Shown: positions 656 through 27,164, counted from the first letter of the stretch. The stretch is DNA of 64,000 bases from an uncultured delta proteobacterium (GCA_963771465.1 CAVYTU010000015.1:96001-160000), one strand, 5' to 3'. Program-made: numbers and translations. The notes: generated by a model not told the origin, from the sequence alone.

Positions 656-2812
656 TTACTTTGTGGCCTTTGTGATGAATTCAGAATCCGCCTTCTCAGC
701 ATTGGCGCGTTCCAGCAGCACTTGTTCCAAGGCGGCGAGCAGATGCGACGGCGAGAGTGAAATGTCTTTGCGATAATTGCCGTCGCGCAGGCCGACCAGT
801 TTGGCTTTCTCGCAGATCGCCGAGAGATCGGCGCCGGAGAAACCTTCGCTGCGCTCGGCCGCGGTTGCGATCGCCTGGTCGAGCTTTTCTTTTTCAGGAA
901 TGCTCGACAGTAGTACCGTGAGTATTTCTTTGCGGCCTGCTAAATCGGGCAGGCCGACGTAGATTTCTAATCCAAGCCGGCCCGGCCTGAGCAGCGCGGG
1001 ATCGAGCAAATCGCGCCGGTTGGTGGCGGCCAGAACAATCACCTGGCTCGCGGCGCGTAGCCCGTCCATCTCGGCGAGCAGTTGGTTGACCACTCGTTCG
1101 GTGGTGGCGTTGGCCGCTTCGCCGCGCCGTTTGGGCGCGATGGCATCGATCTGATCGAACAGAATTACGGTCGGCTGCACCTGGCGCGCCATCTGAAAGA
1201 CATCGCGGATGGTCTGCTCCGATTCGCCGAGCCACATGCTGAAAATCTCCGGGCCGTTGACCGGAATAAAATTGGCGCCGCATTCATGCGCCAGTGCCTT
1301 GGCAACCATCGTCTTACCCGTTCCCGGCGGACCGTAGAGCAAGATCCCCGGTGAGCGGCGCAGGCCCAGCCGAGCGAAGGCGTCGGGATAGATCAACGGC
1401 GTTTCCACCGCCTCGCGCAGCTGGTTGATGACCTTGTTCATGCCGCCGATATCTTTCCAACCGACATCCGGCGTCACCCATAAAGTCTCGCGCAATGCGG
1501 AAGGCGAAGTTTTCTCCAGCGCGGCAACGAAGTCGTCTTTTTTGACGACGATCTGTTCCAAACTGCCGGCGCCGCGTAGCGAAGAGAATCCCGGGCCGGC
1601 GGCGGCGCGCAGCGCGGTGAGTCCGGCTTGGCGCACTAACTCCATCAGATCGGCGCCGACGTAGCCGTGGGTGCGGTGCGCTACCTCCGGCAAAAACGCG
1701 ATCGCCTCTTCATCCATCGGCACGCGCCGGGTGTGGATGTTGAGGATTTCCAAGCGCCCTTCGGCGTTAGGCGGCGCAATGAATATCTCGCGGTCGAAAC
1801 GGCCTGGCCGACGCAGCGCCGGATCGACCGAATCGACTCGATTGGTCGTGCCGATGACGACGACGTCTTCCATGCTGACCAAGCCATCGAGCAGAGAAAG
1901 CAATTGTGTCCCCATGCGCACGTCGGCTTGCGAGCCGCTCTCGCCGCGGCGCGGCGCGATGGCGTCCAACTCATCCATCATGACGATCGACGGACTATGT
2001 TCCATCGCCTCTTCGAAGACCCGGCGCAAATTGGCCTCGGTGCCGCCATGCACGGAGCTCACCAGCTCGGGGCCGTTGACGTAAAGAAAGTGCGCGCCGA
2101 TCTCGTTGGCGATCGCTTTCGCCAAATAAGTTTTGCCGACTCCCGGCGGTCCGTAGAAAAGAATGCCGCGCGGCGCTTCGATGCCGAGGTGTTCGTAGAC
2201 TTGCGGAAACTGGATCGGACACTCGACCAACTCGCGGATCGTCTCGATCTCGGCGGACAGCCCGCCGACATCGTCGAAGGTCACCATGTTCGCCGCGACG
2301 CCGGCGCGCAGCGCGCTGGTGCGCAGCACCACCCGGGTATTTTCGCCGACAAACGAGCGGTCGGGCTCGGCGGAGATGACGCGGAAAATAATATTGCGCG
2401 GAAACTCGAATAGCTTTACCGACAGCACCATGCCGCTGCACGTCAATTGTTTCTCTTCGACAAAGCGAGTTTGTAGCTCGCGCTCCAGCGTCGTCAGGTT
2501 GCCGGTGAGCGGCGCCATCGGTTCCAACACCAGTCGTTTGGCTTCGTCGATCTTTACCGAGTTGAAAGTGATTTTTTCGCGCAGATCGGGTTTTAGAAAC
2601 TGAATCTGAAAGCGGTCCAAACGGACGCAGCCGCGCCCTTCATCCTGCGGCCGCGCCGCAACCCGCGCCAACAGCCGGCGCGCCCGCTGCGTGGTCAATT
2701 CCACCACACTGCCATCCGCGATGCCGTCTTGTTTGAGAATCAACGGATCGACAAAGGCGATATTGCGCCCGCTCTCCGCGCTCGGTAGCCGTTCCACCGG
2801 CAGTTGTGTCAT
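656..2812 (-). CDS. Cdc48/p97/VAT-family double-ring AAA+ ATPase
   Basis: N-domain (about 175 aa) plus two AAA modules: GPPGVGKT/MMDELD/TTNR..DPALRRPGRFD and GPPGTGKT/LFDQID/ATNR..DPALLRPGRLG. Confidence 0.92.
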   Translation of the reverse strand: MTQLPVERLPSAESGRNIAFVDPLILKQDGIADGSVVELTTQRARRLLARVAARPQDEGRGCVRLDRFQIQFLKPDLREKITFNSVKIDEAKRLVLEPMAPLTGNLTTLERELQTRFVEEKQLTCSGMVLSVKLFEFPRNIIFRVISAEPDRSFVGENTRVVLRTSALRAGVAANMVTFDDVGGLSAEIETIRELVECPIQFPQVYEHLGIEAPRGILFYGPPGVGKTYLAKAIANEIGAHFLYVNGPELVSSVHGGTEANLRRVFEEAMEHSPSIVMMDELDAIAPRRGESGSQADVRMGTQLLSLLDGLVSMEDVVVIGTTNRVDSVDPALRRPGRFDREIFIAPPNAEGRLEILNIHTRRVPMDEEAIAFLPEVAHRTHGYVGADLMELVRQAGLTALRAAAGPGFSSLRGAGSLEQIVVKKDDFVAALEKTSPSALRETLWVTPDVGWKDIGGMNKVINQLREAVETPLIYPDAFARLGLRRSPGILLYGPPGTGKTMVAKALAHECGANFIPVNGPEIFSMWLGESEQTIRDVFQMARQVQPTVILFDQIDAIAPKRRGEAANATTERVVNQLLAEMDGLRAASQVIVLAATNRRDLLDPALLRPGRLGLEIYVGLPDLAGRKEILTVLLSSIPEKEKLDQAIATAAERSEGFSGADLSAICEKAKLVGLRDGNYRKDISLSPSHLLAALEQVLLERANAEKADSEFITKATK

Positions 2813-2965
2813 TCGTAACGTCCTCCGATCAGTAGCCGGAATTTATCAGCGAGAAGGTGCCGCGTTTTTTCCTCGGCACACTGGAACATTCGGGCTTGAA
2901 TCGCGCTCATGGCTCGCGCTCGTAGGCAAACGATTACGAGTCACGAGCAGAACACGAACACGATT

Positions 2966-4087
2966 TCACGACTTGTTCCAACTCGAAGCGTCGCTGATAT
3001 GTTCGATGCCGCCGAGAAACTCATGGGACAGCTGGCGCGACCAGCTCGAGATCAGTCGCGCCGGGCTGCTGCCGTCGTTGAAATGCTGATGCGCCGTCAT
3101 CGGCGGGATGCAGATCACATCGCCGGCTTCCCACGGATATTTGGTCTGCTCGTGGACATCGTAGCCTTTGCCCGCTTGCACGTAGATCATTTCCTCGAAG
3201 ATATGGCGGTGTTTGCCGGTGTGGCCGTTGGCCTCGATCTCCATCGTCATCAGGTCCATGGCCCGCGCCGCCACCTCGGTCCACAGGCTGATGTAAAATT
3301 TGAGCTTGCCCTGCCGGGTGTTTTCCAGCGCCGTGTCGGCGCCCTTGATCACCCGCGGCCCTTTTACTTCGGTGTTGTTCTCTTCGACCAGTCGATCGAG
3401 AAACCAATCGTACTTGGTTTTTCCCGTGGCGCCTTGCTTCACCGCTCGGCGCGCCGAGAATACCGCTTCGCGCTTGCCGTCGGCGCCTTTGCGCACTTCC
3501 ATGTCTTCTTCCAAGCCGAGCAAACCGCGCGGGACTTTGAATCCAACCAGCTGTCCCGCGTTATCTTTGATCGGCAGCGTTCCTTCGGGAATCGATTTGA
3601 AATCGAACTGCTCCTGCCACAAAAGACCGAGCACGTGCCAGAGCCGCACCTGCGGCAGCCAGGCGCGAAAGCCGGTTTTGTCGTCGGCAATGAACTCCTG
3701 TGTAGTGTACGGCGGGATGACCACAACGTCGTTGGCTGAGAAAGCGTAGCTCTGGCCGTCTTGCACCGAGGTGCCGCTGCCTTCGAGAATATACGCGGTC
3801 ATCGACGGAATCAGCCGGACTTTTTCGCTCCGCTCGCCGGCTTTGAGATCGATAAAGCTGGCGGTCAAAGCACTCAGCGGCGCGACAGTGAAGCGCTCGA
3901 AGACACGCAGGTCGCCCAGGATATGGCCGCCCTTGGCGAACATCGGCGGCTTGACCACCCGCGGCAACAACTCCATGCGCTCGCGCTCGAGCTTCTGTTT
4001 AATGAACCGACCCTCGTAATCGTAATAGAGCTTTGGGTCGACTTCCGTCTCGCGCAAATTTTCTCGGACTCGTTCTTTCTCCGCCAT
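2966..4087 (-). CDS. Bicupin protein (gentisate 1,2-dioxygenase-like architecture); N-terminal cupin lacks His ligands
   Basis: C-domain GKHRHIFEE...WEAGDVICIPPMTAHQHFN; N-domain has KVRLIP and TTQEF where paralogs have HRHI and HQH. Confidence 0.8.
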   Translation of the reverse strand: MAEKERVRENLRETEVDPKLYYDYEGRFIKQKLERERMELLPRVVKPPMFAKGGHILGDLRVFERFTVAPLSALTASFIDLKAGERSEKVRLIPSMTAYILEGSGTSVQDGQSYAFSANDVVVIPPYTTQEFIADDKTGFRAWLPQVRLWHVLGLLWQEQFDFKSIPEGTLPIKDNAGQLVGFKVPRGLLGLEEDMEVRKGADGKREAVFSARRAVKQGATGKTKYDWFLDRLVEENNTEVKGPRVIKGADTALENTRQGKLKFYISLWTEVAARAMDLMTMEIEANGHTGKHRHIFEEMIYVQAGKGYDVHEQTKYPWEAGDVICIPPMTAHQHFNDGSSPARLISSWSRQLSHEFLGGIEHISDASSWNKS

Positions 4088-4092
4088 GATTC

Positions 4093-5238
4093 CTATCTTC
4101 CTTTCTCGTTGTATTCGGGGGCGTCTTCGATTTGCTCAATGCCGCCGACGCCAAGATCGGCACACATGCTCGGCATGGAGCTCATCAGCAGCACCGGATT
4201 GTCGGGATCGCTGTTGAAATGCTGATGTTCGACCATGGCCGGAATATTGATCAAATCGCCCTTCTGCCAATTCCACCGCTCGCCGTCGTGAATGTCATAG
4301 CCGTTGCCGTTGATGATGAAGATTTGCTCCTCGGCCATATGACGATGTTTGCCCGACCGGCTCGCCGGTGGAATTTCTTGCAGGTAGAGCCACACGCGCC
4401 GCGCCGATGAGTCAACGTGGGGATGGGTGTACCATTTCAACCGTCCCTGCCGCGTCCACTCCCACGGTTGTTCTTCGTAGCGAATGACGTGGGTAATGGA
4501 TTTGCAGAACTTGACCTCGTCGCCGAGCAGCTTCAAGTAACGATCGTAAGTATTTTCCGTCGGACCGCTCCACTCTTTGCTCTCCAAGCGGGCGCGAAAC
4601 ACGCCCTCGACGTCGGGTGATGGCCCGAGGAAAACGTCGATGTCTTCGGTGATTCCCAGGATGCCTTTTTTGATCCGGTAGCCGATCAGCTTCTTGTCAT
4701 TGTCGTATAGCGGCTCTGTGCCCGCCGGGAACGTCGGCTTATCAGCAAACTTGATCTGCTCGCGGTGCAACAACCCGAGGGCGTGGATCATGCGCGACTG
4801 CGGCACGTAGATTTGGCAGCCAACGTCGCGGTCGCCGCCATGTTGATGAATCGTGTACGGTGGCACGATCAATAAATCGAATACTTCGAATTCATAAGTC
4901 ACGCCGTCGTTCCACTCCCACCCCTTACCGGCGATGCAGAATAAAGTCGGCGCGCTAATATGGCGGTGCGCGCCGCGCACCGGCGCGTTGGCCGGAATAT
5001 CGGAAAAATGACAAGTGAGGATATGCATTGGCGCGCGGTTCAGGATGTCGTAGCAGAGCAGATCGCCGGTCTGATGCGGACTGCTGTGACCGTTCATCGT
5101 TCCCTGCGGCGGAATTGGCTTTATCACTCGCGGCAGTTGATTGACGAAGTATTCCTCCCGATCCTGATGCACAAAACGCTTCAGCCGATCCGAATGAGCG
5201 ACTTCCGCGTTACTTTCCCATGGTGTTAAGTCAGACAT
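4093..5238 (-). CDS. Bicupin protein, paralog 2
   Basis: GAHRHIS...PPYTIHQHGG and GKHRHMAEE...IPAMVEHQHFN. Confidence 0.85.
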   Translation of the reverse strand: MSDLTPWESNAEVAHSDRLKRFVHQDREEYFVNQLPRVIKPIPPQGTMNGHSSPHQTGDLLCYDILNRAPMHILTCHFSDIPANAPVRGAHRHISAPTLFCIAGKGWEWNDGVTYEFEVFDLLIVPPYTIHQHGGDRDVGCQIYVPQSRMIHALGLLHREQIKFADKPTFPAGTEPLYDNDKKLIGYRIKKGILGITEDIDVFLGPSPDVEGVFRARLESKEWSGPTENTYDRYLKLLGDEVKFCKSITHVIRYEEQPWEWTRQGRLKWYTHPHVDSSARRVWLYLQEIPPASRSGKHRHMAEEQIFIINGNGYDIHDGERWNWQKGDLINIPAMVEHQHFNSDPDNPVLLMSSMPSMCADLGVGGIEQIEDAPEYNEKGR

Positions 5239-5262
5239 TCAAAACCTCCGAGTGTAGAAACT

Positions 5263-5369
5263 GGTCGAGGATAGAGGATAGAAGATCGAGGATGGCAAAT
5301 CCGAACTCTGACGTCCGACCGCCGACCTCTGTCTTTCAATCTTCCATCCTCAATCCTCTATCGTCGACC
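5263..5369. repeat. Imperfect inverted repeat built of GAGGATA-like heptamers
   Basis: Left arm GGTCGAGGATAGAGGATAGAAGATCGAGGATGG; reverse complement of right arm GGTCGACGATAGAGGATTGAGGATGGAAGATTG. Confidence 0.7.
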
Positions 5370-6493
5370 TATCCACTAAACTCCGGCGCATCTTCCAACT
5401 GCTCGATGCCACCGACGCCTAAATTAATATACGTCGCCGGCATGGCGCAGAGCAGCTTCACAGGATCGGCGCCGGAATTGAAATGCTGATGCTCGGTCAT
5501 GCCGGGGATGCAAATCAAATCGCCCTGCTCCCAGTTCCAGCGCTCGCCATCGTGGACGTCGTAGCCTTTGCCTTCGAGCACCAAGATCAACTCTTCCGAC
5601 ACATGGCGATGACGGCCGGAACGGCTGCCGGGAGGGATTTCGTGGAAGTAGATATATTTACGCTTGGTCGCGATCACCATTTCCGGATGGATAAGCCATT
5701 TGATTTTGCCCTGCCGGGTCAATTCCCAGGGTTCGTCCTTTTCCATCACGACGTGCGGCGCGTGACGGCAGAGATCAGCCTCTTCATGCATCAGCTTCAT
5801 GTAGCGGTCATAGGTATTTTCCACCGGACTCGTCCAGTTACCCGCGCCGCGGCGCGCTTGAAAGCTCGCTTCACGGTTGGGCTCCGGCCCCAAGATGACT
5901 TCGATGTCTTTGGTGATGCCGAGCACGCCTTGCTTGATGCGGTAGCCGATCAAATTTCCTTCGGCGTCATTGATCGGTTCGGTGCCCTGGGGAAAGGTCG
6001 GCTTCTCGTTGAGCTTATGCTGCTCGCGCCAGATCAGTCCCAAGACATGATGGATGCGGCCATCTTCGGGAACGAAGATCGTACAGCCGATGTCCTTGTC
6101 GCCGCCGTGCTGGTGCACGGTGTAGGGCGGCACGGTTAGAATATCGTAGGTTTCGAAATTGTAAGTCTCGCCGTCGTTCCACTCCCAGCCTTTGCCGGTG
6201 AGGCAGAAGAGCGATGGCGCGCCGATATGCCGGTGGGCGCCGCGCACCGGCGCGTGCGGCGCAATGCGGGTAAAGTGACTGGTCATGCAGTAAAGCGGCC
6301 CGCGCGTCAGCATGTCATAGGAAATGTGATCACCGGTCTGATGCGGGCTATCCATGCCCATCACCGTCGGCTGCATCGGCAGTTGTTTCAGCGCATGCGG
6401 CAACGACTGTGCTTTGGTATCTTCCTGGCGCTGATAAACAAACCGCTTCATCTGGTCCGGCACGTTCTCAATTTCACGCCACGGTTCGAGCAT
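5369..6493 (-). CDS. Bicupin protein, paralog 3
   Basis: GAHRHIG...PPYTVHQHGG and GRHRHVSEE...IPGMTEHQHFN. Confidence 0.85.
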   Translation of the reverse strand: MLEPWREIENVPDQMKRFVYQRQEDTKAQSLPHALKQLPMQPTVMGMDSPHQTGDHISYDMLTRGPLYCMTSHFTRIAPHAPVRGAHRHIGAPSLFCLTGKGWEWNDGETYNFETYDILTVPPYTVHQHGGDKDIGCTIFVPEDGRIHHVLGLIWREQHKLNEKPTFPQGTEPINDAEGNLIGYRIKQGVLGITKDIEVILGPEPNREASFQARRGAGNWTSPVENTYDRYMKLMHEEADLCRHAPHVVMEKDEPWELTRQGKIKWLIHPEMVIATKRKYIYFHEIPPGSRSGRHRHVSEELILVLEGKGYDVHDGERWNWEQGDLICIPGMTEHQHFNSGADPVKLLCAMPATYINLGVGGIEQLEDAPEFSG

Positions 6494-6591
6494 TGCTTCG
6501 GCCTCTTACTAATTTTTATTCACCACGAAGGACGTGGAATGGAAAGTTATTCGCAAAGCTGCCGAGTTTGCGGTCTTTGCGGCAAACCTCT

Positions 6592-7707
6592 TCACTCCGG
6601 CGCGTCTTCCAACTGTTCGATGCCGCCCAGACCTAATTCGGCGTAAATGCTCGGCGCCGCGCTGAACAAAAGCGCCGGGCTATCGCCGAGAGAAAAATGC
6701 TGGTGCGTAGTCATCGTCGGGATACAGATCAGATCGCCCTGCTCCCAGTTCCAACGCTCGCCGTCATGGATGTCGTAGCCTTTACCCTCAAGCACGAGAA
6801 TCAATTCTTCCGCTACATGCCGGTGCTGCCCGGAACGGCTGCCCGAATCGATCTGCTGGAAATAAATCCACGCATGATTGGTCGCGGTTTGCGTATGCGG
6901 ATGAACCATCCATTTAATTTTTCCTTGGCGGGTTTGCTCCCAAGGCTCTTTGGTATCGCGCGCGACGTGATCCACCTTGCGGCAGAAGTCCGCCTCGTCA
7001 TGCATGAGCTTGAGGTAGCGGTCATAGGTGCTTTCCACCGAGCCGTTGAATGAACCCGCCGTCCGGCGCGCCTGAAAGCTCGCTTCGCGATTGGGTTCCG
7101 TACCGAGAATGACTTCGATATCCTCGGTGATGCCGAGCACGCCTTTCTTGATTCGGTATCCTTTCAGTACGCCGTCTTCGCCGTAGATCGGCTCGGTGCC
7201 GTCGCGGAAAGTCGGCTTCTCGTTGAGCTTATGCTGCTCGCGCCAGGTGAGGCCCATGAGATTGCCCACCCGGCCGGTCTCAGGCACGTAGATCGTGCAG
7301 CCGATATCTTTGTCGCCGCCATGCTGATGCATGGTGTAGGGCGGCACGATGAGCAGATCGTAGGCTTCGAAATTGTAAGTTTCGCCGTCGTTCCACTCCC
7401 AGCCTTTGCCGGTAACGCAAAATAATGTCGGCGCGCCAATATGGCGATGCATGCCTCGTACCGGCGCCTGCGGCGCCACCCGAGTGAAATGGCTGGTCAT
7501 GCAGTAGAACGGCCCACGGGTCAGCATGTCGTAGCAAACATGGTCGCCGGTCTGGTGCGGACTATCCATGCCCATCACCGTCGGCTGCATCGGCAATTGC
7601 TTCAAAACATGCGGCAATGAACGCGCCTTGGCGTCTTCCTGCTGCTGATAGACGAAACGCTTGATCTGATCGGGCTCACGCTGAACTTCACGCCATGGCT
7701 CAAGCAT
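6592..7707 (-). CDS. Bicupin protein, paralog 4 (closest to paralog 3)
   Basis: GMHRHIG...HQHGG and GQHRHVAEE...HQHFS; start moved to ATG 7707 (AGAGGT RBS; MLEPWRE matches paralog 3). Confidence 0.85.
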   Translation of the reverse strand: MLEPWREVQREPDQIKRFVYQQQEDAKARSLPHVLKQLPMQPTVMGMDSPHQTGDHVCYDMLTRGPFYCMTSHFTRVAPQAPVRGMHRHIGAPTLFCVTGKGWEWNDGETYNFEAYDLLIVPPYTMHQHGGDKDIGCTIYVPETGRVGNLMGLTWREQHKLNEKPTFRDGTEPIYGEDGVLKGYRIKKGVLGITEDIEVILGTEPNREASFQARRTAGSFNGSVESTYDRYLKLMHDEADFCRKVDHVARDTKEPWEQTRQGKIKWMVHPHTQTATNHAWIYFQQIDSGSRSGQHRHVAEELILVLEGKGYDIHDGERWNWEQGDLICIPTMTTHQHFSLGDSPALLFSAAPSIYAELGLGGIEQLEDAPE

Positions 7708-7766
7708 AGTATTTACCTCTGCCAAATTTGAATATTCACAACGGATCCCCCAAGCTTGGGGCCTGT

Positions 7767-8780
7767 CTACAACCCCAACGTCGCCGGCGCGAACAGCTCT
7801 TCGAGTTTGAACTTGTTCTTCGTCAGCCCCTGCTCGTGCGAAAAATCGACGATGGTTTGCAACATATTTTTATTCGCCTTGATACCGTAGGGGAACGGAT
7901 CGTTGCCGAAAATCGCGCGCGTCTTGGCCAAATATTCATCGCGGAATATCAGACCGCTGGGAATGCTATCTTTGAAACGCTCTTGCCAATACTCTTTGCT
8001 CGCGACAAGCGCTTTGTAGAGATTAAATGCCAGCCAGGGATATTTGCGGTCGATGTCGCCGCGAATGATATAGGCATGGTTTGCCGGGACGTAACCGTGT
8101 TTTTTGAAATAACGTGTTCCCTCTTCGATGATATCGGGGAATAGCGGCTTCACCTTGCTCCAGTCGCCGCCGCGGGCGCGAATCTGCGTGGAGCGGTCGA
8201 CGATGTTGCTCTCACGCGAAAAGGCGCGGTGCACAGACGCCACGTCAAGCTCATTGTTGACCATCATCGATGCCAGGCTCTTGTCGTTGGGGATCCGGTG
8301 GAACTTGATTCCCGGCGGCGGCGTAAAGCCGGTGGCGCCGCCGTGGCTTAGTTCTTCGCTTCGTTCCATGTACCAATCGACCTTGTACTGCGATACGCCG
8401 AAATCATGCTCCAATATACCGCGCACCCATAAGGACGCGGTTTGCTGATACTCGCCCACGCCGATGCGCTTGCCGACGATGTCTTCCGGCTTCTTGATGC
8501 CTGAATCGACGTGGTAGGAAAGCTGGCAATGCATGAAGCGACGCGATGGGAAGACGGGAATCGCAATCATGTCCATGCCGTTCGACTTGGCAATCAGATA
8601 CGATGACAGTGACATTTCCGCAATCTCGAACTCCTGAAAGTTGAGCTGGCGCCAGAAGGTTTCCGACGGATCGGAGTAAGTCGTGATCAGCTCAGCGCCT
8701 TCGATGGGCACCGCGCCATTGATTACCGGCTCAACCCGCTCGTTTTCACCGGTGATGAAACTAAATTGCAATTTGGCCAT
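7767..8780 (-). CDS. 4,5-dihydroxyphthalate decarboxylase-like protein (PBP2 fold, OphC/Pht5 family)
   Basis: ETFWRQL..EFEIAEMSLSSY...IPVFPSRRF...GKRIGVGEYQQTA.LW.RGIL...DPFPYG..AN. Confidence 0.75.
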   Translation of the reverse strand: MAKLQFSFITGENERVEPVINGAVPIEGAELITTYSDPSETFWRQLNFQEFEIAEMSLSSYLIAKSNGMDMIAIPVFPSRRFMHCQLSYHVDSGIKKPEDIVGKRIGVGEYQQTASLWVRGILEHDFGVSQYKVDWYMERSEELSHGGATGFTPPPGIKFHRIPNDKSLASMMVNNELDVASVHRAFSRESNIVDRSTQIRARGGDWSKVKPLFPDIIEEGTRYFKKHGYVPANHAYIIRGDIDRKYPWLAFNLYKALVASKEYWQERFKDSIPSGLIFRDEYLAKTRAIFGNDPFPYGIKANKNMLQTIVDFSHEQGLTKNKFKLEELFAPATLGL

Positions 8781-8893: not shown

Positions 8894-9994
8894 TCACTTT
8901 ATCTCGTTAACCAGCTTCTTCACCACGTCGCGATCCCAGACATCAGGCCCCCACAGCCGCTGGTATTTTACATTTTTCTGCCGGTGCGCCCAGGCAGGGA
9001 AGTCATCTTTGGGAATGTCTTCGCGTAAAGAATTGGGACCCGGGTCGTTTGGCTCGCCCTTCTGGACGGCGATCTGTCCCTCGCGCGAGAGAAACCAGTT
9101 GATCATCACCTTGGCGGCGTTTGGATGGGGTGCCTTGTTCAATAGCGCGATCATCGTCCCGCCAGCTTCCATCGCCACGCCTTCTTTCGACATCGCATGG
9201 GGATCCATCACGTCTACCGGCAGGCCCTGCTTCTTGGCTTCGTCGACTTCGGTCGCTTTAGCCGTGATCGCAATCGGCACTTTTCCCGACGCGATCCAGT
9301 CGGTCTGTTGGCGCTCGTCGCGCACTAAAGTAAGCCCGCCGACGGTTATAAGTTTTTTCAAATACTCCTGGCCCAAACTCGGATTATAGTAGAGAAACAG
9401 TAGCGGGCTAGCACCCCCTGGGTCGTTGGGATCCTTCGCGCTGACCTTGCCTTTCCATTTCGGGTCGAGCAGATCCCAGAACGATGTCAGACTTTTTGGA
9501 TCGACCAGCTTGGTGTTATAAGCCACCATGCGCAGAGGAAAGGCGGCGTAGATGAAAATGTAACGGTTCTCACCGTCATTATAATGATGCTTGCCGTCAA
9601 ACCATTTCGAAGCATCTTTCACCTCGGGCATGATCAGCGCCGGGGGGATCGGATCAAAGGCCTTGGCATTCAACATCGTCATCGCCGTGCCGCCGCCCGT
9701 TCGGACAACGTCGGCGAGATATTTTCCCGCACGCCGCTCAGCCATAATGCGCTGCAAGATTTGCGACCCGCTGCCGGTGATCAAATTGAGTTTGATCTTG
9801 GGATATCTTTTCTGGAAAGCATGGAACTCGGCATCCGTGGCCAGCTTGTAAACGGTGACTTGCCCTTCCTGCTCCGCCGCCTTAACTGTCCGCTCCCATT
9901 CATCGCCTGGCGAACTTACCGCCGCCGCAAAGCTCGTCCCATGCAGCAAGAACGTGGATAAACTAAGCGCCACCAGGCTTCTGAGAAGCATCAT
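8894..9994 (-). CDS. ABC extracellular solute-binding protein (Fe3+/AfuA-like family)
   Basis: Signal peptide; AAEQEGQV, YNTKLV, WDLLDPKWKGK, APHPNAAKVMINWFLSREGQ. Confidence 0.85.
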   Translation of the reverse strand: MMLLRSLVALSLSTFLLHGTSFAAAVSSPGDEWERTVKAAEQEGQVTVYKLATDAEFHAFQKRYPKIKLNLITGSGSQILQRIMAERRAGKYLADVVRTGGGTAMTMLNAKAFDPIPPALIMPEVKDASKWFDGKHHYNDGENRYIFIYAAFPLRMVAYNTKLVDPKSLTSFWDLLDPKWKGKVSAKDPNDPGGASPLLFLYYNPSLGQEYLKKLITVGGLTLVRDERQQTDWIASGKVPIAITAKATEVDEAKKQGLPVDVMDPHAMSKEGVAMEAGGTMIALLNKAPHPNAAKVMINWFLSREGQIAVQKGEPNDPGPNSLREDIPKDDFPAWAHRQKNVKYQRLWGPDVWDRDVVKKLVNEIK

Positions 9995-10093
9995 AAGACT
10001 TCTTCTCCTTTGAAGTTCGATATATGCATTTCATCACCAATATCCATTGCAGTAAAGCCGCAACCGAAACTGGAAGTCGGCGTACTTAAACCA

Positions 10094-10762
10094 TCACTCG
10101 CCCTTGAAACCGCCAACAATCGCCGTATTGGTCTCACGCCAGAAACAATCGATGTCACGAAAACCGGCGCGCTTGAGCAGGCTAAACTGCTGCGCCAGAC
10201 TCGGCGCGGCGCCGTCCATTTTCGCTGCGTGGCCGCGGGTTTTAATTTGCAGCTCGCGGAAGTGTCGGCGCAAAGCCGGCGTTGCAAAGTTAACCCGCTC
10301 GATATTCATGAAGACGCCGCCGGGACGGAGTAATTCATGAACCTGACCGTACACCGGACCGATGAGCTTGAGTTTGCGCAGATTGTGGATCGCCCGTGCG
10401 CTCACCACCGCGTCCAACTGCCGCGGCAAGTTCGTAATCCAATTCTCCGCGCCAAAATCAGCCTGCGCGTAACTTACTCTGTCGCCGTAGGATGCCAGAC
10501 GTTGACGCGCGAGCTTCAGCATCTCATCGGAGCCATCCGAGCAAATGACGTGCATATCGGGAAACGTCGCGAGCAATTTCTCCGCCAATGTCCCAGGACC
10601 GCAACCCAGATCCATTACGCGAGATTGTCCGCCGACAAACACCGACAGCCAACTGAGCGCAGCGGTAAATTGCGCTTCGCGCTCCGCCGCGCGCCGGCTA
10701 TCCTTGTCGACCCATTCTTGGTCATACTGTTGCGAGCCCCACTCATGTTCGCTTTTCGCCAT
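10094..10762 (-). CDS. Class I SAM-dependent methyltransferase
   Basis: Motif I VMDLGCGPG, DAVVSARAIHNL, LLRPGGVF; GGAG RBS before ATG 10762. Confidence 0.85.
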   Translation of the reverse strand: MAKSEHEWGSQQYDQEWVDKDSRRAAEREAQFTAALSWLSVFVGGQSRVMDLGCGPGTLAEKLLATFPDMHVICSDGSDEMLKLARQRLASYGDRVSYAQADFGAENWITNLPRQLDAVVSARAIHNLRKLKLIGPVYGQVHELLRPGGVFMNIERVNFATPALRRHFRELQIKTRGHAAKMDGAAPSLAQQFSLLKRAGFRDIDCFWRETNTAIVGGFKGE

Positions 10763-10926
10763 CTTACACTGCTCCAATCAGTTAACCTTGAGCCACACTC
10801 CGCCTTGGCCCATGCCAACAGCGCGCTGAAAAGCGCGAAGTTTTCGTCATCTATTTAAGCCCTGTGTTTGGCTCCAGTTCCTTCCGCAGCCGCTCAGGAC
10901 AAGCTTTGCGACTAATCCGACCAATT

Positions 10927-12024
10927 TCAGCGCGTCACCTGACAGTGATCGGGCGGCACGTGAACGTAGACCTGTTCACCGGGCTGAAATAGTTCATGGG
11001 GGCTCAGCAGGGCGCGGAAGATTTTGCCTTTGATCAGCACTTCGCCGTCGATAAAGCTGCCCAGGAACAGTGAGCGCTTAATCGTTCCCTCAAAACAATT
11101 ATCGACAAACTTGCTGCGCTCGTGGGAGCACATCAATGCTTCGGGGCGAATTACGACAAAGACCGAATCGTTGACGTTCACTTCTTCGTTTTTGCTGAGA
11201 TCCACCAAGATCGGCCCGAGCTCGGTATCCACCGAGCCCTTGTCACCGGTTATGGTCACTCGTCCTTGGAGCGCGTTGGCAGTACCGAGAAACTCAGCCA
11301 CCAGTTTGTTCTTGGGCCGTACGTACATTTGATACGGCGTACCCACCTCGACCAACTCGCCATTCATGATCACACCGACGCTGTCCGATAGCGCCAGCGC
11401 CTCGGTCTGGTCGTGGGTGACAAAAAACGTCGTGATACCGACGGCGCGCGCCACTTCCTTTAACTCAACGCGCATCTCCTCGCGTAGCTTGGCGTCTAGA
11501 TTGCTGAGCGGTTCGTCGAGCAAGAGCAGTTTGGGTTTGCGCACCAGCGCGCGCGCCAGGGCGACACGCTGTTGTTGACCGCCGCTCAATTGAGTCGCCG
11601 GCCGACTGGCGTAGCCGCCCATTTGCACTTGAGCTAAAGCCTCGTTTACGCCTTTTTCGACGTCAGCTTTTGAATGTTTTTTTCCTTTGGCGCCGTAGAG
11701 CAATGGGAACGCCACGTTGTGAAACACGTCCATGTGCGGCCAGATGGCGTAGGATTGAAACACCATGCCGATGGGCCGCTGTTCGGGCGGTACGAGAATC
11801 TGCCGTTTAGCCGAAAAGACGCACTCGCCGCCGATGTGAATCTCACCGTCTTCGGGCTGCTCCAAGCCGGCGATGCAGCGCAACGTCGTGCTCTTCCCCG
11901 AGCCGCTGGGCCCGAGCAAAGTGAAAAATTGTCCCTCGGCGATATCGATGTTCACGTCCTGCACGGCGCGCACCTCGCCCTTGTCAACCACGAAGCTTTT
12001 TCTCAAGTTGTCGATTCTTAGCAT
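10927..12024 (-). CDS. ABC transporter ATP-binding protein (PotA/FbpC-like, TOBE domain)
   Basis: GPSGSGKS, LSGGQQQR, LLLDEPLSNLD, VTHDQ. Confidence 0.92.
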   Translation of the reverse strand: MLRIDNLRKSFVVDKGEVRAVQDVNIDIAEGQFFTLLGPSGSGKSTTLRCIAGLEQPEDGEIHIGGECVFSAKRQILVPPEQRPIGMVFQSYAIWPHMDVFHNVAFPLLYGAKGKKHSKADVEKGVNEALAQVQMGGYASRPATQLSGGQQQRVALARALVRKPKLLLLDEPLSNLDAKLREEMRVELKEVARAVGITTFFVTHDQTEALALSDSVGVIMNGELVEVGTPYQMYVRPKNKLVAEFLGTANALQGRVTITGDKGSVDTELGPILVDLSKNEEVNVNDSVFVVIRPEALMCSHERSKFVDNCFEGTIKRSLFLGSFIDGEVLIKGKIFRALLSPHELFQPGEQVYVHVPPDHCQVTR

Positions 12025-12065
12025 AGGTCTAATCTCCAATACTCAATTGTTACCGCCATATTGTT

Positions 12066-18866: not shown

Positions 18867-19165
18867 AGCATCGACCTCCTAATGACTTCCGCGATAATTT
18901 TGCCAATGTGAACCGATTGAAGAGATTGCGTTTACTAGCTTTGCCGGAGTAATTCAACGATTTCCCCCGCGCCAAAGATTAGCCAACTGCTGTGCCGAGC
19001 GATCTCTCGCTTAGCCACTAAATATCAGAAATATACTATGGAGACTATACTCCCCAACCAACGGCCCCGGCACTATGATGCTCTTGCTCCAAGGCGTCGG
19101 TTCGCGGTAATACGCTTCCAGAAGATCTAATTTTCGATCGAATGCAATTGCTAAACGCCGCGCCA

Positions 19166-20191
19166 ATGACTGCACTACGAAAAACAATCCTTTTACTCGG
19201 TTTAGCCGGGTCGCTGCCACTAATCTTCGGCTTGCGGGTCGCCCGCGCTCAGCAGGAGAAGCTCGAACGCATGGTTATCTCCTATGCCGGAATCACCGGC
19301 GGACGGGGGCCGGTTTGGATCGCCAAGGAGCTGAAACTTTTCGAAAAGCACGGCCTTGATGCGCGCCTGGTGCAAATCACCGCCGGCGCTACTTCGATCA
19401 ACGCTTTGATCGCCGGCGACGTCGACATGGCGATGACGACGTCGTCGGCTGCCGTCGCGGCGGTTCTGCGCGACGCGCCGTTGTCGATCATAGCCACCGG
19501 CGGCGCGCCACCCTACAAACTGGTCGCCCACTCGGCTATAAATTCTGCGGCACAGCTCAAGGGCAAGGTCGTCGGCAGCAGTCAACTCGCCTCCGGCGCC
19601 GACTTCGCCATCCGCAAGCTCTTGCCCAAGTTGGGATTGACTCCGGGAAAAGATGTAACCGTTTTACCGACCGGCTTAAGCGAGTCGCATAAACGCATCC
19701 TGCTGATTTTCCAGGGACGCATCGATGCTACCTTGGCGACCGTTGAAAATGTCTTCCAAGTCGAGCTCGGCGGCCAAAAACTAAACGTCATCGCCGATTT
19801 AAAAGAAATGGGTGTCCACGTCAGCGGCACGGACATGTTGACGACCCAGCAGTTTTTGAAAACCCATCCGCAAAAAGTCAAATCGTTTTTACGGGCCTAT
19901 ATCGAAGGGGTGTGGACCGGCATACAGAATCGAGAAGTTTCTGACCGCATTTACCGAAAATATTTAAAAATCGATAACCCAAAACTGTTGGAAGCGATGC
20001 ACAAAAGTTATTTTGTCGCCGGCAACGTGCCGCTCAAACCCTATCCGCAGCTCGATTCGGTACAATCGGACGTAGAATATTTAACCACGGCGAATCCCGG
20101 GCTTAAGACCAAGAAAGCAACCGAGATCGTCGACACGACGCTACTGCGCGAAATCGAGAACGAAGGCTTTTACACGCAGCTGCGGCGCTGA
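19166..20191 (+). CDS. NitT/TauT-family ABC substrate-binding protein
   Basis: Signal peptide; WIAKELKLFEKHGLD, ALIAGDVD, LKGKVVG. Confidence 0.8.
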   Translation: MTALRKTILLLGLAGSLPLIFGLRVARAQQEKLERMVISYAGITGGRGPVWIAKELKLFEKHGLDARLVQITAGATSINALIAGDVDMAMTTSSAAVAAVLRDAPLSIIATGGAPPYKLVAHSAINSAAQLKGKVVGSSQLASGADFAIRKLLPKLGLTPGKDVTVLPTGLSESHKRILLIFQGRIDATLATVENVFQVELGGQKLNVIADLKEMGVHVSGTDMLTTQQFLKTHPQKVKSFLRAYIEGVWTGIQNREVSDRIYRKYLKIDNPKLLEAMHKSYFVAGNVPLKPYPQLDSVQSDVEYLTTANPGLKTKKATEIVDTTLLREIENEGFYTQLRR

Positions 20192-20254
20192 CCCAGAGAA
20201 TGAACGCATCGCCTTAGCGAATTTTTAGCGCAACAAAATAACAAGAGAACTCAA

Positions 20255-21427
20255 ATGGGCTATCAAGGTTTTACCGTCATCGACGCCGACTCGCATTTCC
20301 GCGAGTATCTCGACGTCGATCGCACCTATCGCGACAATATCGATCCTGAGTATCGTGAAGCGTTCGAGCGGCTTTCCCGCGCCGTCGCCAAGCGACGTGA
20401 GGTAGGGCAATCCACCGATCTGTTCATGGGACCCATGGCGATCATCGAACCGTCGGACGAGTGGCGTCCACTCGGCGTCTACGATACCTTCGGCGCCGAG
20501 CGACCAACTCAGGCGCGCATGACGCGCCAGACGCCGATTCCGCGCGAGGTCAACTGGCAGCCGGAGCTGAGACTCAAGGATATGGACCGCGCCGGGATCG
20601 ATATGAGCGTGATCTTTCCGAGCCACGCCGCCAGTTATTGTATTTTGCGCGAGGTTGGTTTCGAGAGCGCGCTGCACCGGGCGCATCACCGTTACATGAG
20701 CCAATACTGTGGCGGCGCCAACGGCCGGCTGCGCTGGGTCGCCATCGCGACCATGCGCGATATAGCCGCGAGCGTAGGAGAAATCACCCATTGGGCCGAG
20801 AAAGATGCCAATCTCGCCGGCGTGCTGGTGCCGCCGCTCTGTCCCGATGGCAAGCTGCTCGACACTCCTGATCTCCATCCGTTGTTTCAGCGCGCTCAGG
20901 AACTCGACCTGCCGATTCTGGTTCACGGCGGCGTCTTGCGCTCACCCCACGGCCCTGGCGCCAGCGAGCTCAATAACGCCGGCTTTATCATTCGCGCCGT
21001 CTATCAGCCTTGGGGCGGCATGACCGCAATCAGCGCGCTGATTGGCGGCGGCGTTTTCGAACTGTTCACCAAGCTCCGCGTCGCGGTTTTCGAAACCAGC
21101 GCGGGCTGGCTGCCGTGGTTAATTGAACGGCTCGACGAAAGCTATGAGTCAAAGCCGAATCTTGTGCCCCATTTGAAGCGCAAACCATCCGAGGTGCTCG
21201 CCGAAGGACGGCTGTTCCACTCCATCGACCCCGGCGAGCGTTACATCGCGCATTGTGTCCAAGAGTTGGGCGAAGACATCTGGCTGTTCGCGACGGATTA
21301 CCCGCACACCGGCGTGGCATTTCCCGACGGCGCCCAAGCCGCAGTCGACCGGCCGGGACTCTCCGAAAGCGCCAAGAGAAAAATCCTCGGCGCCAACGCG
21401 CAACGCTTATTTGCCCGGCTCGCCTGA
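20255..21427 (+). CDS. Amidohydrolase_2 family metalloenzyme
   Basis: IDADSH, DMDRAGID, PILVH, FATDYPH, KILGANAQRLF. Confidence 0.88.
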   Translation: MGYQGFTVIDADSHFREYLDVDRTYRDNIDPEYREAFERLSRAVAKRREVGQSTDLFMGPMAIIEPSDEWRPLGVYDTFGAERPTQARMTRQTPIPREVNWQPELRLKDMDRAGIDMSVIFPSHAASYCILREVGFESALHRAHHRYMSQYCGGANGRLRWVAIATMRDIAASVGEITHWAEKDANLAGVLVPPLCPDGKLLDTPDLHPLFQRAQELDLPILVHGGVLRSPHGPGASELNNAGFIIRAVYQPWGGMTAISALIGGGVFELFTKLRVAVFETSAGWLPWLIERLDESYESKPNLVPHLKRKPSEVLAEGRLFHSIDPGERYIAHCVQELGEDIWLFATDYPHTGVAFPDGAQAAVDRPGLSESAKRKILGANAQRLFARLA

Positions 21428-21613
21428 GCAGTCGCGCAAGACAGCACCCCGGTGAAATCGCTGATAAGAAGGATTGCACCCACGACAATTTAACCGAAGT
21501 CGGAGACTTCACGGTGACCCCCGCTTGCCGATTGACGCGAGTTTTTCTAAGATCACCCCATTAACTCGTAGAAATTCTTTGAATGAAGACTCCGAGAAAG
21601 CGAGGACACTGCA

Positions 21614-22888
21614 ATGTTAACTAGAGAAGAGAACCAACTGGTAACTCGCGTCGGTCGCGGCACACCGATGGGCGAAGTCATGCGACGTTATTGGATGCCG
21701 GCGTTGCTCGCCGAACAATTACCGTCGCCCGATTGCCCGCCGGTTCGGGTGAAACTCTTGGGCGAAGAACTGGTCGCCTTTCGCGACAGCCAAGGCCGCG
21801 TCGGCCTATTGGAAGAATTTTGTCCGCACCGGCGCGCATCGCTCTTCCTGGGCCGTAACGAAGAGAGCGGCTTGCGCTGCGTCTATCACGGCTGGAAGTT
21901 CGACGTTCAAGGCCGTTGCGTCGACATGCCCAACGAGCCGGCGGCGAGCAACTTCAAAGACAAGGTTAGCATACAATCCTATCCCACGATCGAAATGGGC
22001 GGGGTGATCTGGACCTACATGGGTCCGCCGGAAAAAATCCCCGAACCGGTCGGTATGGAGTGGCTGCGTGCTCCAGAGAACCATCGCTTCGTGTCTCAGA
22101 CCCATGAATTTTGCAATTACGTCCAATGCGTCGAAGGCGGCATCGATACCTGCCACGGCTCGTTTCTCCACAACAACGATCTCTCCGATCTCGCCGCGTT
22201 TAGCCGCATCGATCGGGCGCCGCGGCTGGAAGTGGAACGGACCGATTATGGCTTTCGATATGTCGGTATTCGCGATGTAGGCGAGATCGGCACCTATTTG
22301 CGGCTCTATCAATTCGTCCTGCCGTTTCATCAGTTCCGCTCCCAACAAATCGTTCGCCGTAAAGGCCAAGGCAGCGGCAACCGCGCCGATATCCCGATCA
22401 TGAAAGGCCACATGTGGGTGCCCATGGATGACCACAGCACCATGGTTTACAACTGGATGTTTGCTGTCGACGAGGACAAACCGATGACTCAGGAGTTCAT
22501 CGAGCAGCAGGAAAACAGCGGCGGCCGCGGTCCCGCAGGCGAAACTACCGTGCGCCACCGCACCCGCGAAAATGACTGGCTGATCGACCGCGAAGTGCAA
22601 CGCACGAAGACTTACACCGGCATCAAGGGCGTCAACACGCAGGACTTGGCCGTGCAGGAAAGCATGGGCGCCATCGTCGATCGCAGCCTCGAGCATCTCG
22701 GCACATCGGATAAAGCGATTATTACCTACCGGCGCATTCTGCTCGACGTTCTCCGCGATTTTGAGAACGGCATCGAGCCGCTCGGTGTCAACCCGCGCAC
22801 TTATCGCAATGTACGATCGGCCGATATCGTCATTCCAAAAGACGCGCGCTGGCAAGACATCGCCGACCAAAGTGTCGCGCACTGGTAG
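21614..22888 (+). CDS. Rieske non-heme iron oxygenase (phthalate 4,5-dioxygenase OphA2-like family)
   Basis: Rieske CPHR...CVYH; mononuclear Fe motif EGGIDTCHGSFLH; QDLAVQESMG..VDRSLEHLG.SD. Confidence 0.88.
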   Translation: MLTREENQLVTRVGRGTPMGEVMRRYWMPALLAEQLPSPDCPPVRVKLLGEELVAFRDSQGRVGLLEEFCPHRRASLFLGRNEESGLRCVYHGWKFDVQGRCVDMPNEPAASNFKDKVSIQSYPTIEMGGVIWTYMGPPEKIPEPVGMEWLRAPENHRFVSQTHEFCNYVQCVEGGIDTCHGSFLHNNDLSDLAAFSRIDRAPRLEVERTDYGFRYVGIRDVGEIGTYLRLYQFVLPFHQFRSQQIVRRKGQGSGNRADIPIMKGHMWVPMDDHSTMVYNWMFAVDEDKPMTQEFIEQQENSGGRGPAGETTVRHRTRENDWLIDREVQRTKTYTGIKGVNTQDLAVQESMGAIVDRSLEHLGTSDKAIITYRRILLDVLRDFENGIEPLGVNPRTYRNVRSADIVIPKDARWQDIADQSVAHW

Positions 22889-22896
22889 ATACGGTA

Positions 22897-24043
22897 ATGC
22901 CCAGTGTAATTGCACAGATGAGGCATCGGCGCGTCGTTACATTCTCGGTGCTCTTGGCTTTGGCATCATTTTTTTACTGCGCGCCGACCCTTCACGCGGA
23001 CTGGAAAAGCGACTGGGAGAAAGTAACCGCAGCAGCGAAAAAAGAAGGCCAGCTCAATCTCTACGTCGGCCGGTACGGCCAGGCGGCGCTGCTGGACGAG
23101 TTCAAAAAAGAATTCCCCGAGATCAAGATTGTTTCGGTCAATGGCACCGGCGATCAATTGGCGACGCGCATCGCCGCCGAAGTGCGCGGCGGCAAAACCA
23201 TCGCCGACATTTACAGCGGCGGGCCCAATTCAATTCAGAACGCGCTTTACCGCGGCAAGATGCTCGACTCGATCAAGTCCGCTTTTATTCTGCCGGAAAT
23301 CCTCGATGAGTCGAAATGGTATGGCGGCAAACATGTTTTCATTGACCGCGAAGGCCAGTTCATATTTCTTTACGTCGCGCTGCCGGGCTCGCGCGGTTTA
23401 TCTTTCAACGCAAGCTTGGTAAACCCGAAAGGAATTCAAATCGTATTGGGATCTGACGCTACCGAAGTGGAAAGGAAAAATCACTTCCCAGCGGGTCACT
23501 GAAACCGGCCTGAGCGCGCACTTGCAGTTCTACTACTATCATCCCGACCTCGGCCCCGAGTTCATCAAGCGCGCCTTCGGCGCCATGGACATCACGTTTG
23601 GTGATCGGCGCACGATCACCGATTGGCTGGCGGTCGGCAAATACGCCATCTGCCATGGCTGCCGCCAAGTCGACAAAGCCCAGAGTCAAGGTCTGGCGGT
23701 CGATGACTTCGACACTGGCGATTGGAAAGAAGGACAGCAGCTCAGCACGGGCGGCGGCTCCATCGGGCTGATCAAAGGCGGGCCCAATCCTAACGCGGCG
23801 CGGGTTTTTATCAATTGGTTCCTGTCGCGCAAAGGGCAGACGGCGATGCAAAAATCCAACGATCTTTACGGCGAGAATCCGCCGAACTCTCGCCGCATCG
23901 ATATTCCCAAAGACATGCTGCCTAGTGAAAACCGTCTGATCGACGGTAGAAAATATCTAGACGTATCGAACCCGGAGTTTAGCGACATGGCGCCGGTACT
24001 AAAACTAGCGCGCGAGATCATGCGCGCGCGCGATCAGAAGTGA
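22897..24043 (+). pseudogene. ABC solute-binding protein split by a +1 frameshift near 23430
   Basis: Removing one base from CCGAAAGGAATTC restores VNPKEFKSYWDLTLPKWKGKI and joins ORFs 22897-23502 and 23522-24043; paralog of 8894-9994. Confidence 0.8.
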
Positions 24044-24050
24044 GGAGACT

Positions 24051-25175: not shown

Positions 25176-25177
25176 AT

Positions 25178-25245
25178 AGTCGAGGATGGATCAGGATCGA
25201 AGATGGCAGTCCGATCGCAGATTTCTCGATTCTCCATCTTCGGGC
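25178..25245. repeat. Degenerate heptamer inverted repeat, same family as 5263-5369
   Basis: GTCGAGGATGGATCAGGATCGAAGATGGC...TCTCGATTCTCCATCTTCG. Confidence 0.5.
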
Positions 25246-25292
25246 CATCTGTCGTGATCTAACCCATTGGGCATCATTGATAAGGGAAACAT

Positions 25293-26012: not shown

Positions 26013-26026
26013 AAGTAACTACGCCT

Positions 26027-27040: not shown

Positions 27041-27060
27041 CCCTACGGGATATCGCATTA

Positions 27061-27138
27061 CAAATTCCAAATTCTAGATTCCAAATCGCCGGTCCGAATT
27101 CTGAAATCTGGAGTTTGGAATCTGCAATCTGAAATTCC
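27061..27138. repeat. Heptamer (AATTCCA/TGGAATC-like) imperfect inverted repeat
   Basis: CAAATTCCAAATTCTAGATTCCAAATC...AAATCTGGAGTTTGGAATCTGCAATCTGAAATT. Confidence 0.6.
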
Positions 27139-27164
27139 TCGCGTTAGCGAGGACGGGAGGCTTT

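Follow-up and report, generated by a model that had tools for sequence, protein, structure and literature searches.

A bacterial Cdc48-like ATPase clade with a glutamine in its second Walker B motif is genetically coupled to a family of cupin proteins

Proteasome-docking unfoldases of the VAT type carry an aromatic pore loop in the first AAA ring (D1) and a C-terminal HbYX motif. In NSF, a type II AAA protein, ATP is hydrolyzed by D1, while the second ring (D2) binds ATP and holds the hexamer together; NSF dismantles a specific protein complex and feeds no protease. For Rubisco activase/CbbX and the MoxR class (CoxD, NorQ), the AAA+ gene is tied to one enzyme family, and active-site repair or maturation has been proposed as its role; to our knowledge, no AAA+ protein of these groups serves cupins. 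Among bacterial Cdc48-like proteins, the actinobacterial two-ring ATPase Cpa is encoded by the last gene of an operon with psd and pssA and binds the 20S proteasome. As reported for Cpa, the motifs of D2 are strictly conserved (its Walker B variant was made by mutating E566) and D1 is the degenerate ring, and homologs outside the actinobacteria have been regarded as sporadic transfers whose role is not known (PMC6017811). Here, we describe a locus at positions 656 to 8780 of a 64,000-nt stretch of DNA from an uncultured delta proteobacterium (GCA_963771465.1 CAVYTU010000015.1:96001-160000; hereafter, the window), in which four bicupin genes are followed by a Cdc48-like ATPase gene whose clade is genetically coupled to one small family of cupins. 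The initial annotation of this DNA knew of no described cupin array with a Cdc48 module; likewise, a literature search that left supplementary files outside its scope found no paper linking cupins to a Cdc48-like or AAA ATPase in bacteria. The module consists of the following features, read from the ATPase end:

656-2812, minus strand: ATPase gene, the final gene of the array; 718 aa with two PF00004 AAA domains
2813-2965, minus strand: spacer between cupD and the ATPase gene; 153 nt
2966-4087, minus strand: cupD, a D-type bicupin proximal to the ATPase gene; 373 aa
4093-5238, minus strand: cupC, bicupin retaining its two metal motifs; 381 aa
5369-6493, minus strand: cupB, bicupin retaining its two metal motifs; 374 aa
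6592-7725, minus strand: cupA, bicupin retaining its two metal motifs; 377 aa
7767-8780, minus strand: OphC-like protein of the periplasmic-binding-protein fold; 337 aa

The open reading frames, family matches, and paralog identities therefore confirm what the initial annotation had described, namely four paralogous bicupins of ~375 aa between an OphC-like gene and a last-gene ATPase of the Cdc48/VAT type. Its coordinates were exact, with one small correction: the true start of cupA is probably the seventh codon (Met, ~7707) and not the TTG, as in cupB and in the ESM Atlas record. In the direction from ophC to the ATPase gene, the intergenic gaps measure 41, 98, 130, 5, and 153 nt, with the 5 nt separating the cupC stop from the cupD start. 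In the ESM Atlas, the cupins fall into clusters without names.

The ATPase shares two AAA rings with VAT, Cdc48, and p97, which are its nearest solved relatives (VAT, a VCP-like ATPase, PDB 5g4g, E 9e-177; p97, ~1e-150), but it departs from them in several features. The top NCBIfam model, TIGR01243 (CDC48), scores 665.9 bits, under its cut-off of 802.65. At the level of domains, the two PF00004 matches are clear, and a probable N-domain reaches 29.7 bits against a CDC48_N cut-off of 35.1, with no match to CDC48_2. In D1, Walker A (GPPGVGKT), Walker B (MMDELDA), the sensor, and the arginines are all intact, and the pore loop, SSVHGG, is non-aromatic. D2 has an intact Walker A motif, an intact arginine finger, and an aromatic pore loop (MWLG). 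Its Walker B motif reads LFDQIDA, so that Gln554 replaces the catalytic Glu (D-Q at 553-554). The protein ends in ...EFITKATK and has no HbYX motif; thus, neither hallmark of a VAT-type docking unfoldase is present. For the 49 genes with Glu at the corresponding position that are counted below, the D1 pore loop is of the KFYG/KYYG types.

The glutamine marks a lineage. Gln554 is invariant in a 42-row alignment and occurs in 114 of the 117 best database matches covering position 554, the other three being proteins of 1000-1162 aa with Glu. In a FastTree phylogeny of 89 rows, the 37 Gln-type rows, one of them with E-Q in place of D-Q, group together behind a single branch with a support of 100, and the 52 Glu-type rows, including three long (1000-1162-aa) Glu proteins, lie on the other side. 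Placed by sequence, then, the window ATPase is a member of a monophyletic bacterial Gln-type clade that is separate from archaeal-like and other bacterial Cdc48-like proteins. It had been likened to a generic Cdc48/VAT protein or to Cpa, and this view has to be abandoned in light of its separate clade, the D2 Walker B Gln, and the non-aromatic D1 pore loop. The likeness to Cpa is that of a bacterial Cdc48-like gene standing last in an operon of metabolic enzymes; compared with the published description of Cpa, the window ATPase shows the reverse ring pattern (D1 intact, D2 with Gln) and has cupin neighbors (PMC6017811). None of the psd/pssA operon, the conserved D2 with degenerate D1, and the proteasome that characterize Cpa applies to it. 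The gene is the sole Cdc48-like gene of the window's genome (G000), and the single PF00227 match in that genome is HslV-sized, so that no alpha/beta 20S pair is present.

A Walker B E-to-Q ring binds ATP without hydrolyzing it, as is established in AAA enzymology. We therefore take D2 to be structural and D1 to drive the machine, a layout resembling that of NSF. The comparison applies at the general level of classical AAA proteins; NSF itself is eukaryotic, depends on SNAP adaptors, and carries an aromatic pore loop in D1.

The genomic neighborhood of the clade was surveyed in two ways. A genome_contigs search with the ATPase returned 10 loci at 55-96% identity, including one Chloroflexota and one Actinomycetota metagenome-assembled genome. 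In addition, we searched 401 genomes in each of three phylum-level samples, namely the window's own phylum, the phylum of genome G401, and the Chloroflexota-type phylum of genome G402. ATPase matches were classed by the residue at position 554, and family cupins were screened within 1.5 kb, with the following outcome:

genome_contigs: cupin beside 10/10 Gln-type genes; no Glu-type genes found
own phylum, further loci: cupin beside 1/2 Gln-type and 0/27 Glu-type genes
G401 phylum: cupin beside 3/3 Gln-type and 0/3 Glu-type genes
G402 phylum: cupin beside 8/12 Gln-type and 0/19 Glu-type genes
total: cupin beside 22/27 Gln-type and 0/49 Glu-type genes

In every genome_contigs locus, the ATPase gene is immediately preceded by one to six bicupin genes, and in two of these loci (L014 and L015), it sits between cupin genes. 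The single miss in the own-phylum sample (L017) is cut 76 nt from the contig end. The linkage extends to clade members in other phyla that are 42-55% identical to the window ATPase, where the adjacent genes encode mono- or bicupins of the same family; monocupins of 170-190 aa flank such remote members in L143/L190, L183, L014, and L015. Hence, across the three phylum-level samples, it is the Gln-type clade, and not other Cdc48-like genes, that adjoins this cupin family. The initial annotation had made its proposal hinge on recurrent linkage of close ATPase homologs to cupins, and such linkage was found, both in every genome_contigs locus (10/10) and overall (22/27). In one contig of a metagenome-assembled genome (L013 1816-3700), the bicupin genes upstream of the ATPase gene look fragmented, with tblastn hits split across frames, and the ATPase match begins at residue 125; decay or an assembly error is possible.

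The same association is seen at the level of whole genomes. In the own-phylum sample, full-length family bicupins occur in two genomes only (G000 and G291), and the same two carry an ATPase at least 80% identical to that of the window. A third genome (G270, 85% complete) has a 53% identical Gln-type ATPase together with two monocupins, and a fourth (G036) has three weaker family matches along with Glu-type ATPases. In the G402 phylum, nine tested genomes with a Gln-type gene contain 9, 13, 15, 17, 19, 22, 24, 26, and 46 profile matches (E <=1e-8). For 15 tested genomes of the same sample without one, of which ten have Glu-type genes and five have no Cdc48-like match, the corresponding numbers are zero in twelve and 1, 1, and 2 in the others. 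The Gln-type ATPase thus co-occurs with the cupin family genome by genome. Expansion of the cupin paralogs to 22-46 matches per genome, beside one or two Gln-type ATPase genes, was observed in G942, G853, G1149, G951, and others.

The bicupins of the window are of two types. CupB, CupC, and CupD are 75%, 57%, and 34% identical to CupA, respectively, and on this alignment, cupB and cupA are recent tandem duplicates. Each protein matches Cupin_2 in its C-terminal half and, weakly, gentisate or 5-aminosalicylate dioxygenases; matches to AraC_binding, the AraC ligand-binding family of Pfam, were also among the hits. The AlphaFold2 (AF2) model of CupA is a bicupin (mean predicted local distance difference test score, pLDDT, 73.9), and the solved structures closest to it in fold are those of gentisate and salicylate 1,2-dioxygenases and of oxalate decarboxylase (Foldseek E 3.6e-15, TM ~0.45). 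Cupin_2 matches, aligned HxH...(E)...H motifs, and the AF2 model with its Foldseek relatives thus agree on a bicupin architecture, with the N-terminal site lost in CupD. Cupin motifs are defined here as in general usage. In CupA, CupB, and CupC (A/B/C-type), the N-terminal barrel has HRH...HQH, a three-His site like that of gentisate 1,2-dioxygenase (GDO), and the C-terminal barrel has HRH..EE..HQH (His/His/Glu/His). In CupD, the N-terminal barrel reads R-L-I in place of H-R-H and TTQEF in place of xHQH, so that the His ligands are gone, and the C-terminal barrel retains HRH..EE..HQH.

Gentisate and salicylate 1,2-dioxygenases (3bu7, 2d40, and 2phd) share the bicupin fold and an HRH...H motif of the three-His type with the window bicupins, to which they are ~17-20% identical. 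In contrast to these enzymes, the present family has metal motifs in both domains of its A/B/C-type members, a paired D-type paralog, a helical linker ahead of the barrel, and a C-terminal tail of the form ..E-x-x-E-D/x-A/C-P-E; the linker is specific to the family, and linker and tail alike are common to its remote members. The family is small, as a search with CupD among 1.84 billion representatives finds 29 sequences at E 1e-30 and 165 at E 1e-10.

D-type orthologs of 53-95% identity are found in Binatia-type, Chloroflexota (L015), and Actinomycetota (L014) loci. The split between the two types is therefore old, because they are only 33-36% identical to each other while D orthologs span phyla. 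Among non-duplicate loci with at least 1300 nt of upstream sequence, the D-type gene directly follows an A/B/C-type gene in 26 of 26 cases. Genes of the A/B/C type, for their part, can be solitary (L061, L076-L078, L084, and C15:596766-597884). The constant order, together with the degenerate N-terminal site of the D type, fits a heteromer in which a catalytic A/B/C subunit is paired with a degenerate paralogous D subunit. The heteromeric cupin complex suggested by the initial annotation thereby gains indirect support, in that a D paralog with a degenerate N-terminal site recurs in three phyla, always behind an A/B/C-type gene.

The cupins may act in one pathway with the product of the gene upstream of the array. 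This product is, by full-length homology, a protein like the OphC-type decarboxylases of the periplasmic-binding-protein (PBP) fold: residues 1-334 of 337 align with 4,5-dihydroxyphthalate decarboxylase (PDB 9jp7, HMMER E 6e-45), a distant relationship. The signal peptide region is absent from the alignment, and an NCBIfam scan of the protein gave no model match. The OphC-like gene is kept upstream of the cupins in Binatia-type loci, and relatives of 29-34% identity are present near some remote loci.

On these grounds, we propose that the locus would be an operon for taking up and catabolizing an aromatic compound, probably one that is hydroxy-carboxylated. At its core would stand cupin metalloenzymes of a rare and small family, to which a Cdc48-like ATPase of its own is genetically coupled. 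The A/B/C and D subunits would form hetero-oligomeric enzymes with a non-heme metal, likely Fe(II), that cleave rings or catalyze a related reaction downstream of the OphC-like decarboxylase. The ATPase hexamer would be organized like NSF, with D1 as the motor and D2 binding ATP without hydrolysis and holding the hexamer together, and movements of the N-domain or pore driven by D1 would remodel the cupin oligomers. Such remodeling may serve the assembly of subunits or of the metal center, or reactivation after inactivation by oxidation or inhibitors; the ATPase might act in cis on the neighboring array and in trans on the other family members of the genome. The coupling of the ATPase clade to the cupin family is an observation, whereas the chaperone or reactivase mechanism is our interpretation of it. 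For the reading as a whole, that is, cupin metalloenzymes that are probably A/D heteromers acting after an OphC-like decarboxylase, and a dedicated D1-driven remodeler that assembles, metallates, or reactivates them, we estimate a probability of about 0.45.

Several observations weigh against this reading, and a number of them come from the cupin side. A cupin profile scan of metagenome contigs gave 76 loci, 7 of which contain the ATPase gene. In non-duplicate loci, and with the count limited to D-type genes that have 2.5 kb or more of sequence downstream, the ATPase gene was directly next in 11 of 23 and anywhere in the locus in 12 of 23. In one subfamily of pairs (C ~65%, D ~52% identical), a gene for a solute-binding protein (SBP), not the ATPase gene, comes next; in genome G291, two additional A/D pairs lie apart from both of its Gln-type ATPase genes; and genome G124, with five weaker matches to the family, gave no match to Cdc48-like proteins at E 1e-100. 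The window's own genome encodes a fifth bicupin (C15:596766-597884; locus L133 8755-9894), 58% identical to CupB, with neither a D-type partner nor an ATPase gene in the 19 kb fetched. Conversely, for 4 of the 12 Gln-type loci in the G402 phylum, no cupin was detectable in the ~5-20 kb around the ATPase gene; one of these four has an OphC-like neighbor, and another has an ABC ATPase with a TOBE domain. As for the enzymes themselves, the bicupins score far below the cut-offs of the GDO-type models in NCBIfam (32-47 bits against 442.1 for TIGR02272, gentisate 1,2-dioxygenase; 47-59 bits against 650 for NF049978, 5-aminosalicylate dioxygenase). Regarding the motor, a non-aromatic D1 pore loop combined with a D2 that lacks the catalytic Glu makes classical processive threading doubtful. 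Finally, the genomes compared are kin, so the contrast between those with and without the Gln-type gene overstates independence, and the co-occurrence may partly reflect common lineage or lifestyle. With adjacency in 22 of 27 cases seen from the ATPase and yet in 11 of 23 pairs seen from the cupins, the ATPase is linked to the cupin family, although there are cupin loci that do not carry it. The notion of an ATPase tied to every cupin array accordingly did not survive, as the gene is absent beside about half of the A/D pairs.

Evidence on co-transcription is likewise mixed. The ATPase gene of the window is set off from cupD by 153 nt, which counts against a shared operon; in relatives (L008-L012 and L064), the same gap is 11-33 nt, and in L008-L012 by themselves it is 12-33 nt. 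No terminator-like or promoter-like site was found on the coding strand of the spacer, a GGAGGA lies 8 nt ahead of the ATPase ATG, and the spacer folds better than its shuffles (z -3.7). A conserved RNA in the spacer was considered and rejected, as about seven relatives yielded no consensus pairs and Rfam matched nothing in the window. Four soil or rhizosphere RNA libraries contain contigs with near-identical pieces of all six genes (the ATPase gene, cupD-A, and ophC), and one contig bridges cupA and ophC. None of these contigs spans 2812-2966, and RNA libraries can hold DNA; the contigs are therefore weak evidence of expression and none of co-transcription, which again does not favor the proposal.

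These points bear most directly on an explanation in which the genes are co-regulated and their products make no contact. The Gln-type ATPase would then be a general quality-control or stress remodeler, of use wherever aromatic or oxidative catabolic islands are switched on, that has become fixed at the ends of their operons. The cupins, in turn, would be homo-oligomeric enzymes of an ordinary sort that work unaided. Such an arrangement would agree with an ATPase gene that comes last and, in the window, at a distance of 153 nt, with the roughly one half of A/D pairs that lack it, with the 4 of 12 clade members in the G402 sample that have no nearby cupins, and with surrounding genes that vary between MmgE/PrpD, short-chain dehydrogenase/reductase (SDR), isochorismatase, and Rieske types. 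However, across ATPases that are 42-96% identical, the one constant neighbor is a cupin of this small family, none of the 49 other Cdc48-like genes has a cupin neighbor, and in L014 and L015, the ATPase gene is inside the cupin array. We therefore regard mere co-regulation as unlikely.

Alternatively, the cupins may be ligand-sensing cofactors or adaptors that, on binding an aromatic ligand, recruit the ATPase or gate it toward other targets, as UBX proteins or Ufd1-Npl4 do for Cdc48. The 170-190-aa monocupins flanking remote clade members, the many cupin paralogs per single ATPase gene, the degenerate site in D-type and some remote bicupins, and the AraC_binding matches could all be accommodated by adaptors. 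An adaptor role sits poorly with the complete His/His/(Glu)/His metal motifs kept in most copies, the GDO-like N-terminal site, and the setting of the cupins among transport and catabolic genes, and no obvious third-party client is conserved; we think it quite improbable. A prediction of the complex between the ATPase N-domain (residues 1-180, 42 rows) and CupD (23 rows) gave a score of 0.00 in both runs, without controls, and weighs neither for nor against any of these readings.

Regulated turnover, in which the ATPase would unfold cupins for a partner protease in the style of Cpa or VAT with the proteasome, in order to shut off the pathway or remove oxidatively damaged enzyme, has in its favor the homology to the VAT and p97 unfoldases and a conserved acidic C-terminal cupin tail (..GGIEQIEDAPE), shared by remote monocupins, that might be a tag, but the missing HbYX motif, the lone HslV-sized PF00227 match in place of a 20S alpha/beta pair in the window's genome, the lack of any protease gene conserved across loci, a D2, the usual threading motor, without its catalytic Glu beside a non-aromatic D1 pore loop, and a cupin tail modeled within the fold (pLDDT 87 in the last block) disfavor proteolysis to the point that we consider it very unlikely.

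If a dedicated remodeler is retained as the preferred reading, it can be cast in broader terms, as an unrecognized Cdc48-like lineage with an active D1 and a hydrolysis-dead, ATP-binding D2 that may function as the dedicated activase or assembly machine of one cupin metalloenzyme family. We advance this broader statement only tentatively. Were it correct, it would be the first Cdc48-type enzyme activase, whose client cupins would number anywhere between a handful and dozens of paralogs in a genome, and the sporadic bacterial Cdc48 homologs would gain a defined client. The comparison with other systems suggests that an enzyme-dedicated AAA+ machine is of a known kind and that a Cdc48 type with this unusual specialization of its rings is new; Rubisco activase/CbbX and the members of the MoxR class have one AAA+ ring, belong to other clades, and are not Cdc48-like. 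Should the partnership prove physical, the principle represented by Rubisco activase and MoxR would extend to Cdc48-type motors and cupin oxygenases.

Apart from the mechanism, one large bacterial Cdc48-like clade gains a sequence signature, the D2 Walker B Gln, and a specific genetic partner. For work on how type II AAA proteins divide labor between their rings, the clade also supplies a naturally occurring E-to-Q ring. Furthermore, an uncharacterized and strongly expanding cupin family, which probably takes part in degrading lignin-derived or other aromatic acids, is flagged in soil Binatia and Chloroflexota.

Upstream of the OphC-like gene, the window contains three more genes on the same strand:

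8894-9994, minus strand: periplasmic SBP (SBP_bac_1/6/8) with a signal peptide; conserved in the cluster
10094-10777, minus strand: class I S-adenosylmethionine-dependent methyltransferase; conserved in the cluster
10927-12039, minus strand: PotA/FbpC/PhnT-like ABC ATPase with a TOBE domain, by family matches

The methyltransferase recurs at 62-90% identity in L008, L010, L012, and L057-L060, and ABC ATPases of the PotA-like type also stand beside the ATPase-cupin module in L014, L142/L189, L143/L190, and L179. The SBP and PotA-like ABC ATPase genes (8894-12039) have no adjoining permease gene in the window or in L010; L014 and L015 encode a permease in which two domains are fused.

More widely, genes for LigXa-like Rieske oxygenases lie near the module in the window (21614-22888) and in L014, L015, and L186. 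Other genes near the module across loci encode LigB, glyoxalase-type, and ring-hydroxylating beta-subunit proteins, Amidohydro_2 proteins, NMT1/THI5-like and OphC-like PBP-fold proteins, MmgE/PrpD, many SBPs with PotA-like ABC ATPases, SDR, and isochorismatase. LigW-type decarboxylases belong to the Amidohydro_2 family. As judged from these gene families, the surroundings fit the uptake and catabolism of aromatic acids. A defense system was considered and discarded: PADLOC returned only generic AAA-domain matches (IetA and TRIP13), with the IteA model at 220.8 bits against a cut-off of 510, and the cupins and the OphC-like protein matched nothing.

A second catabolic block occupies 19142-27944 on the plus strand of the window. 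It encodes NMT1/THI5-like, Amidohydro_2, and LigXa-like Rieske oxygenase proteins, two SBPs, arylmalonate-decarboxylase-like and Asp/Glu-racemase-like proteins, and two open reading frames without a family. A sigma-54-dependent activator that combines GAF and PAS domains is encoded at 33169-35100 on the minus strand, ~20 kb from the module, and possibly regulates one of the catabolic blocks. In other genomes, MmgE/PrpD-family genes were seen downstream of the ATPase gene in L010 (13990-16727) and in L132 (10502-11857); between the ATPases of these two loci, identity is only ~46%.

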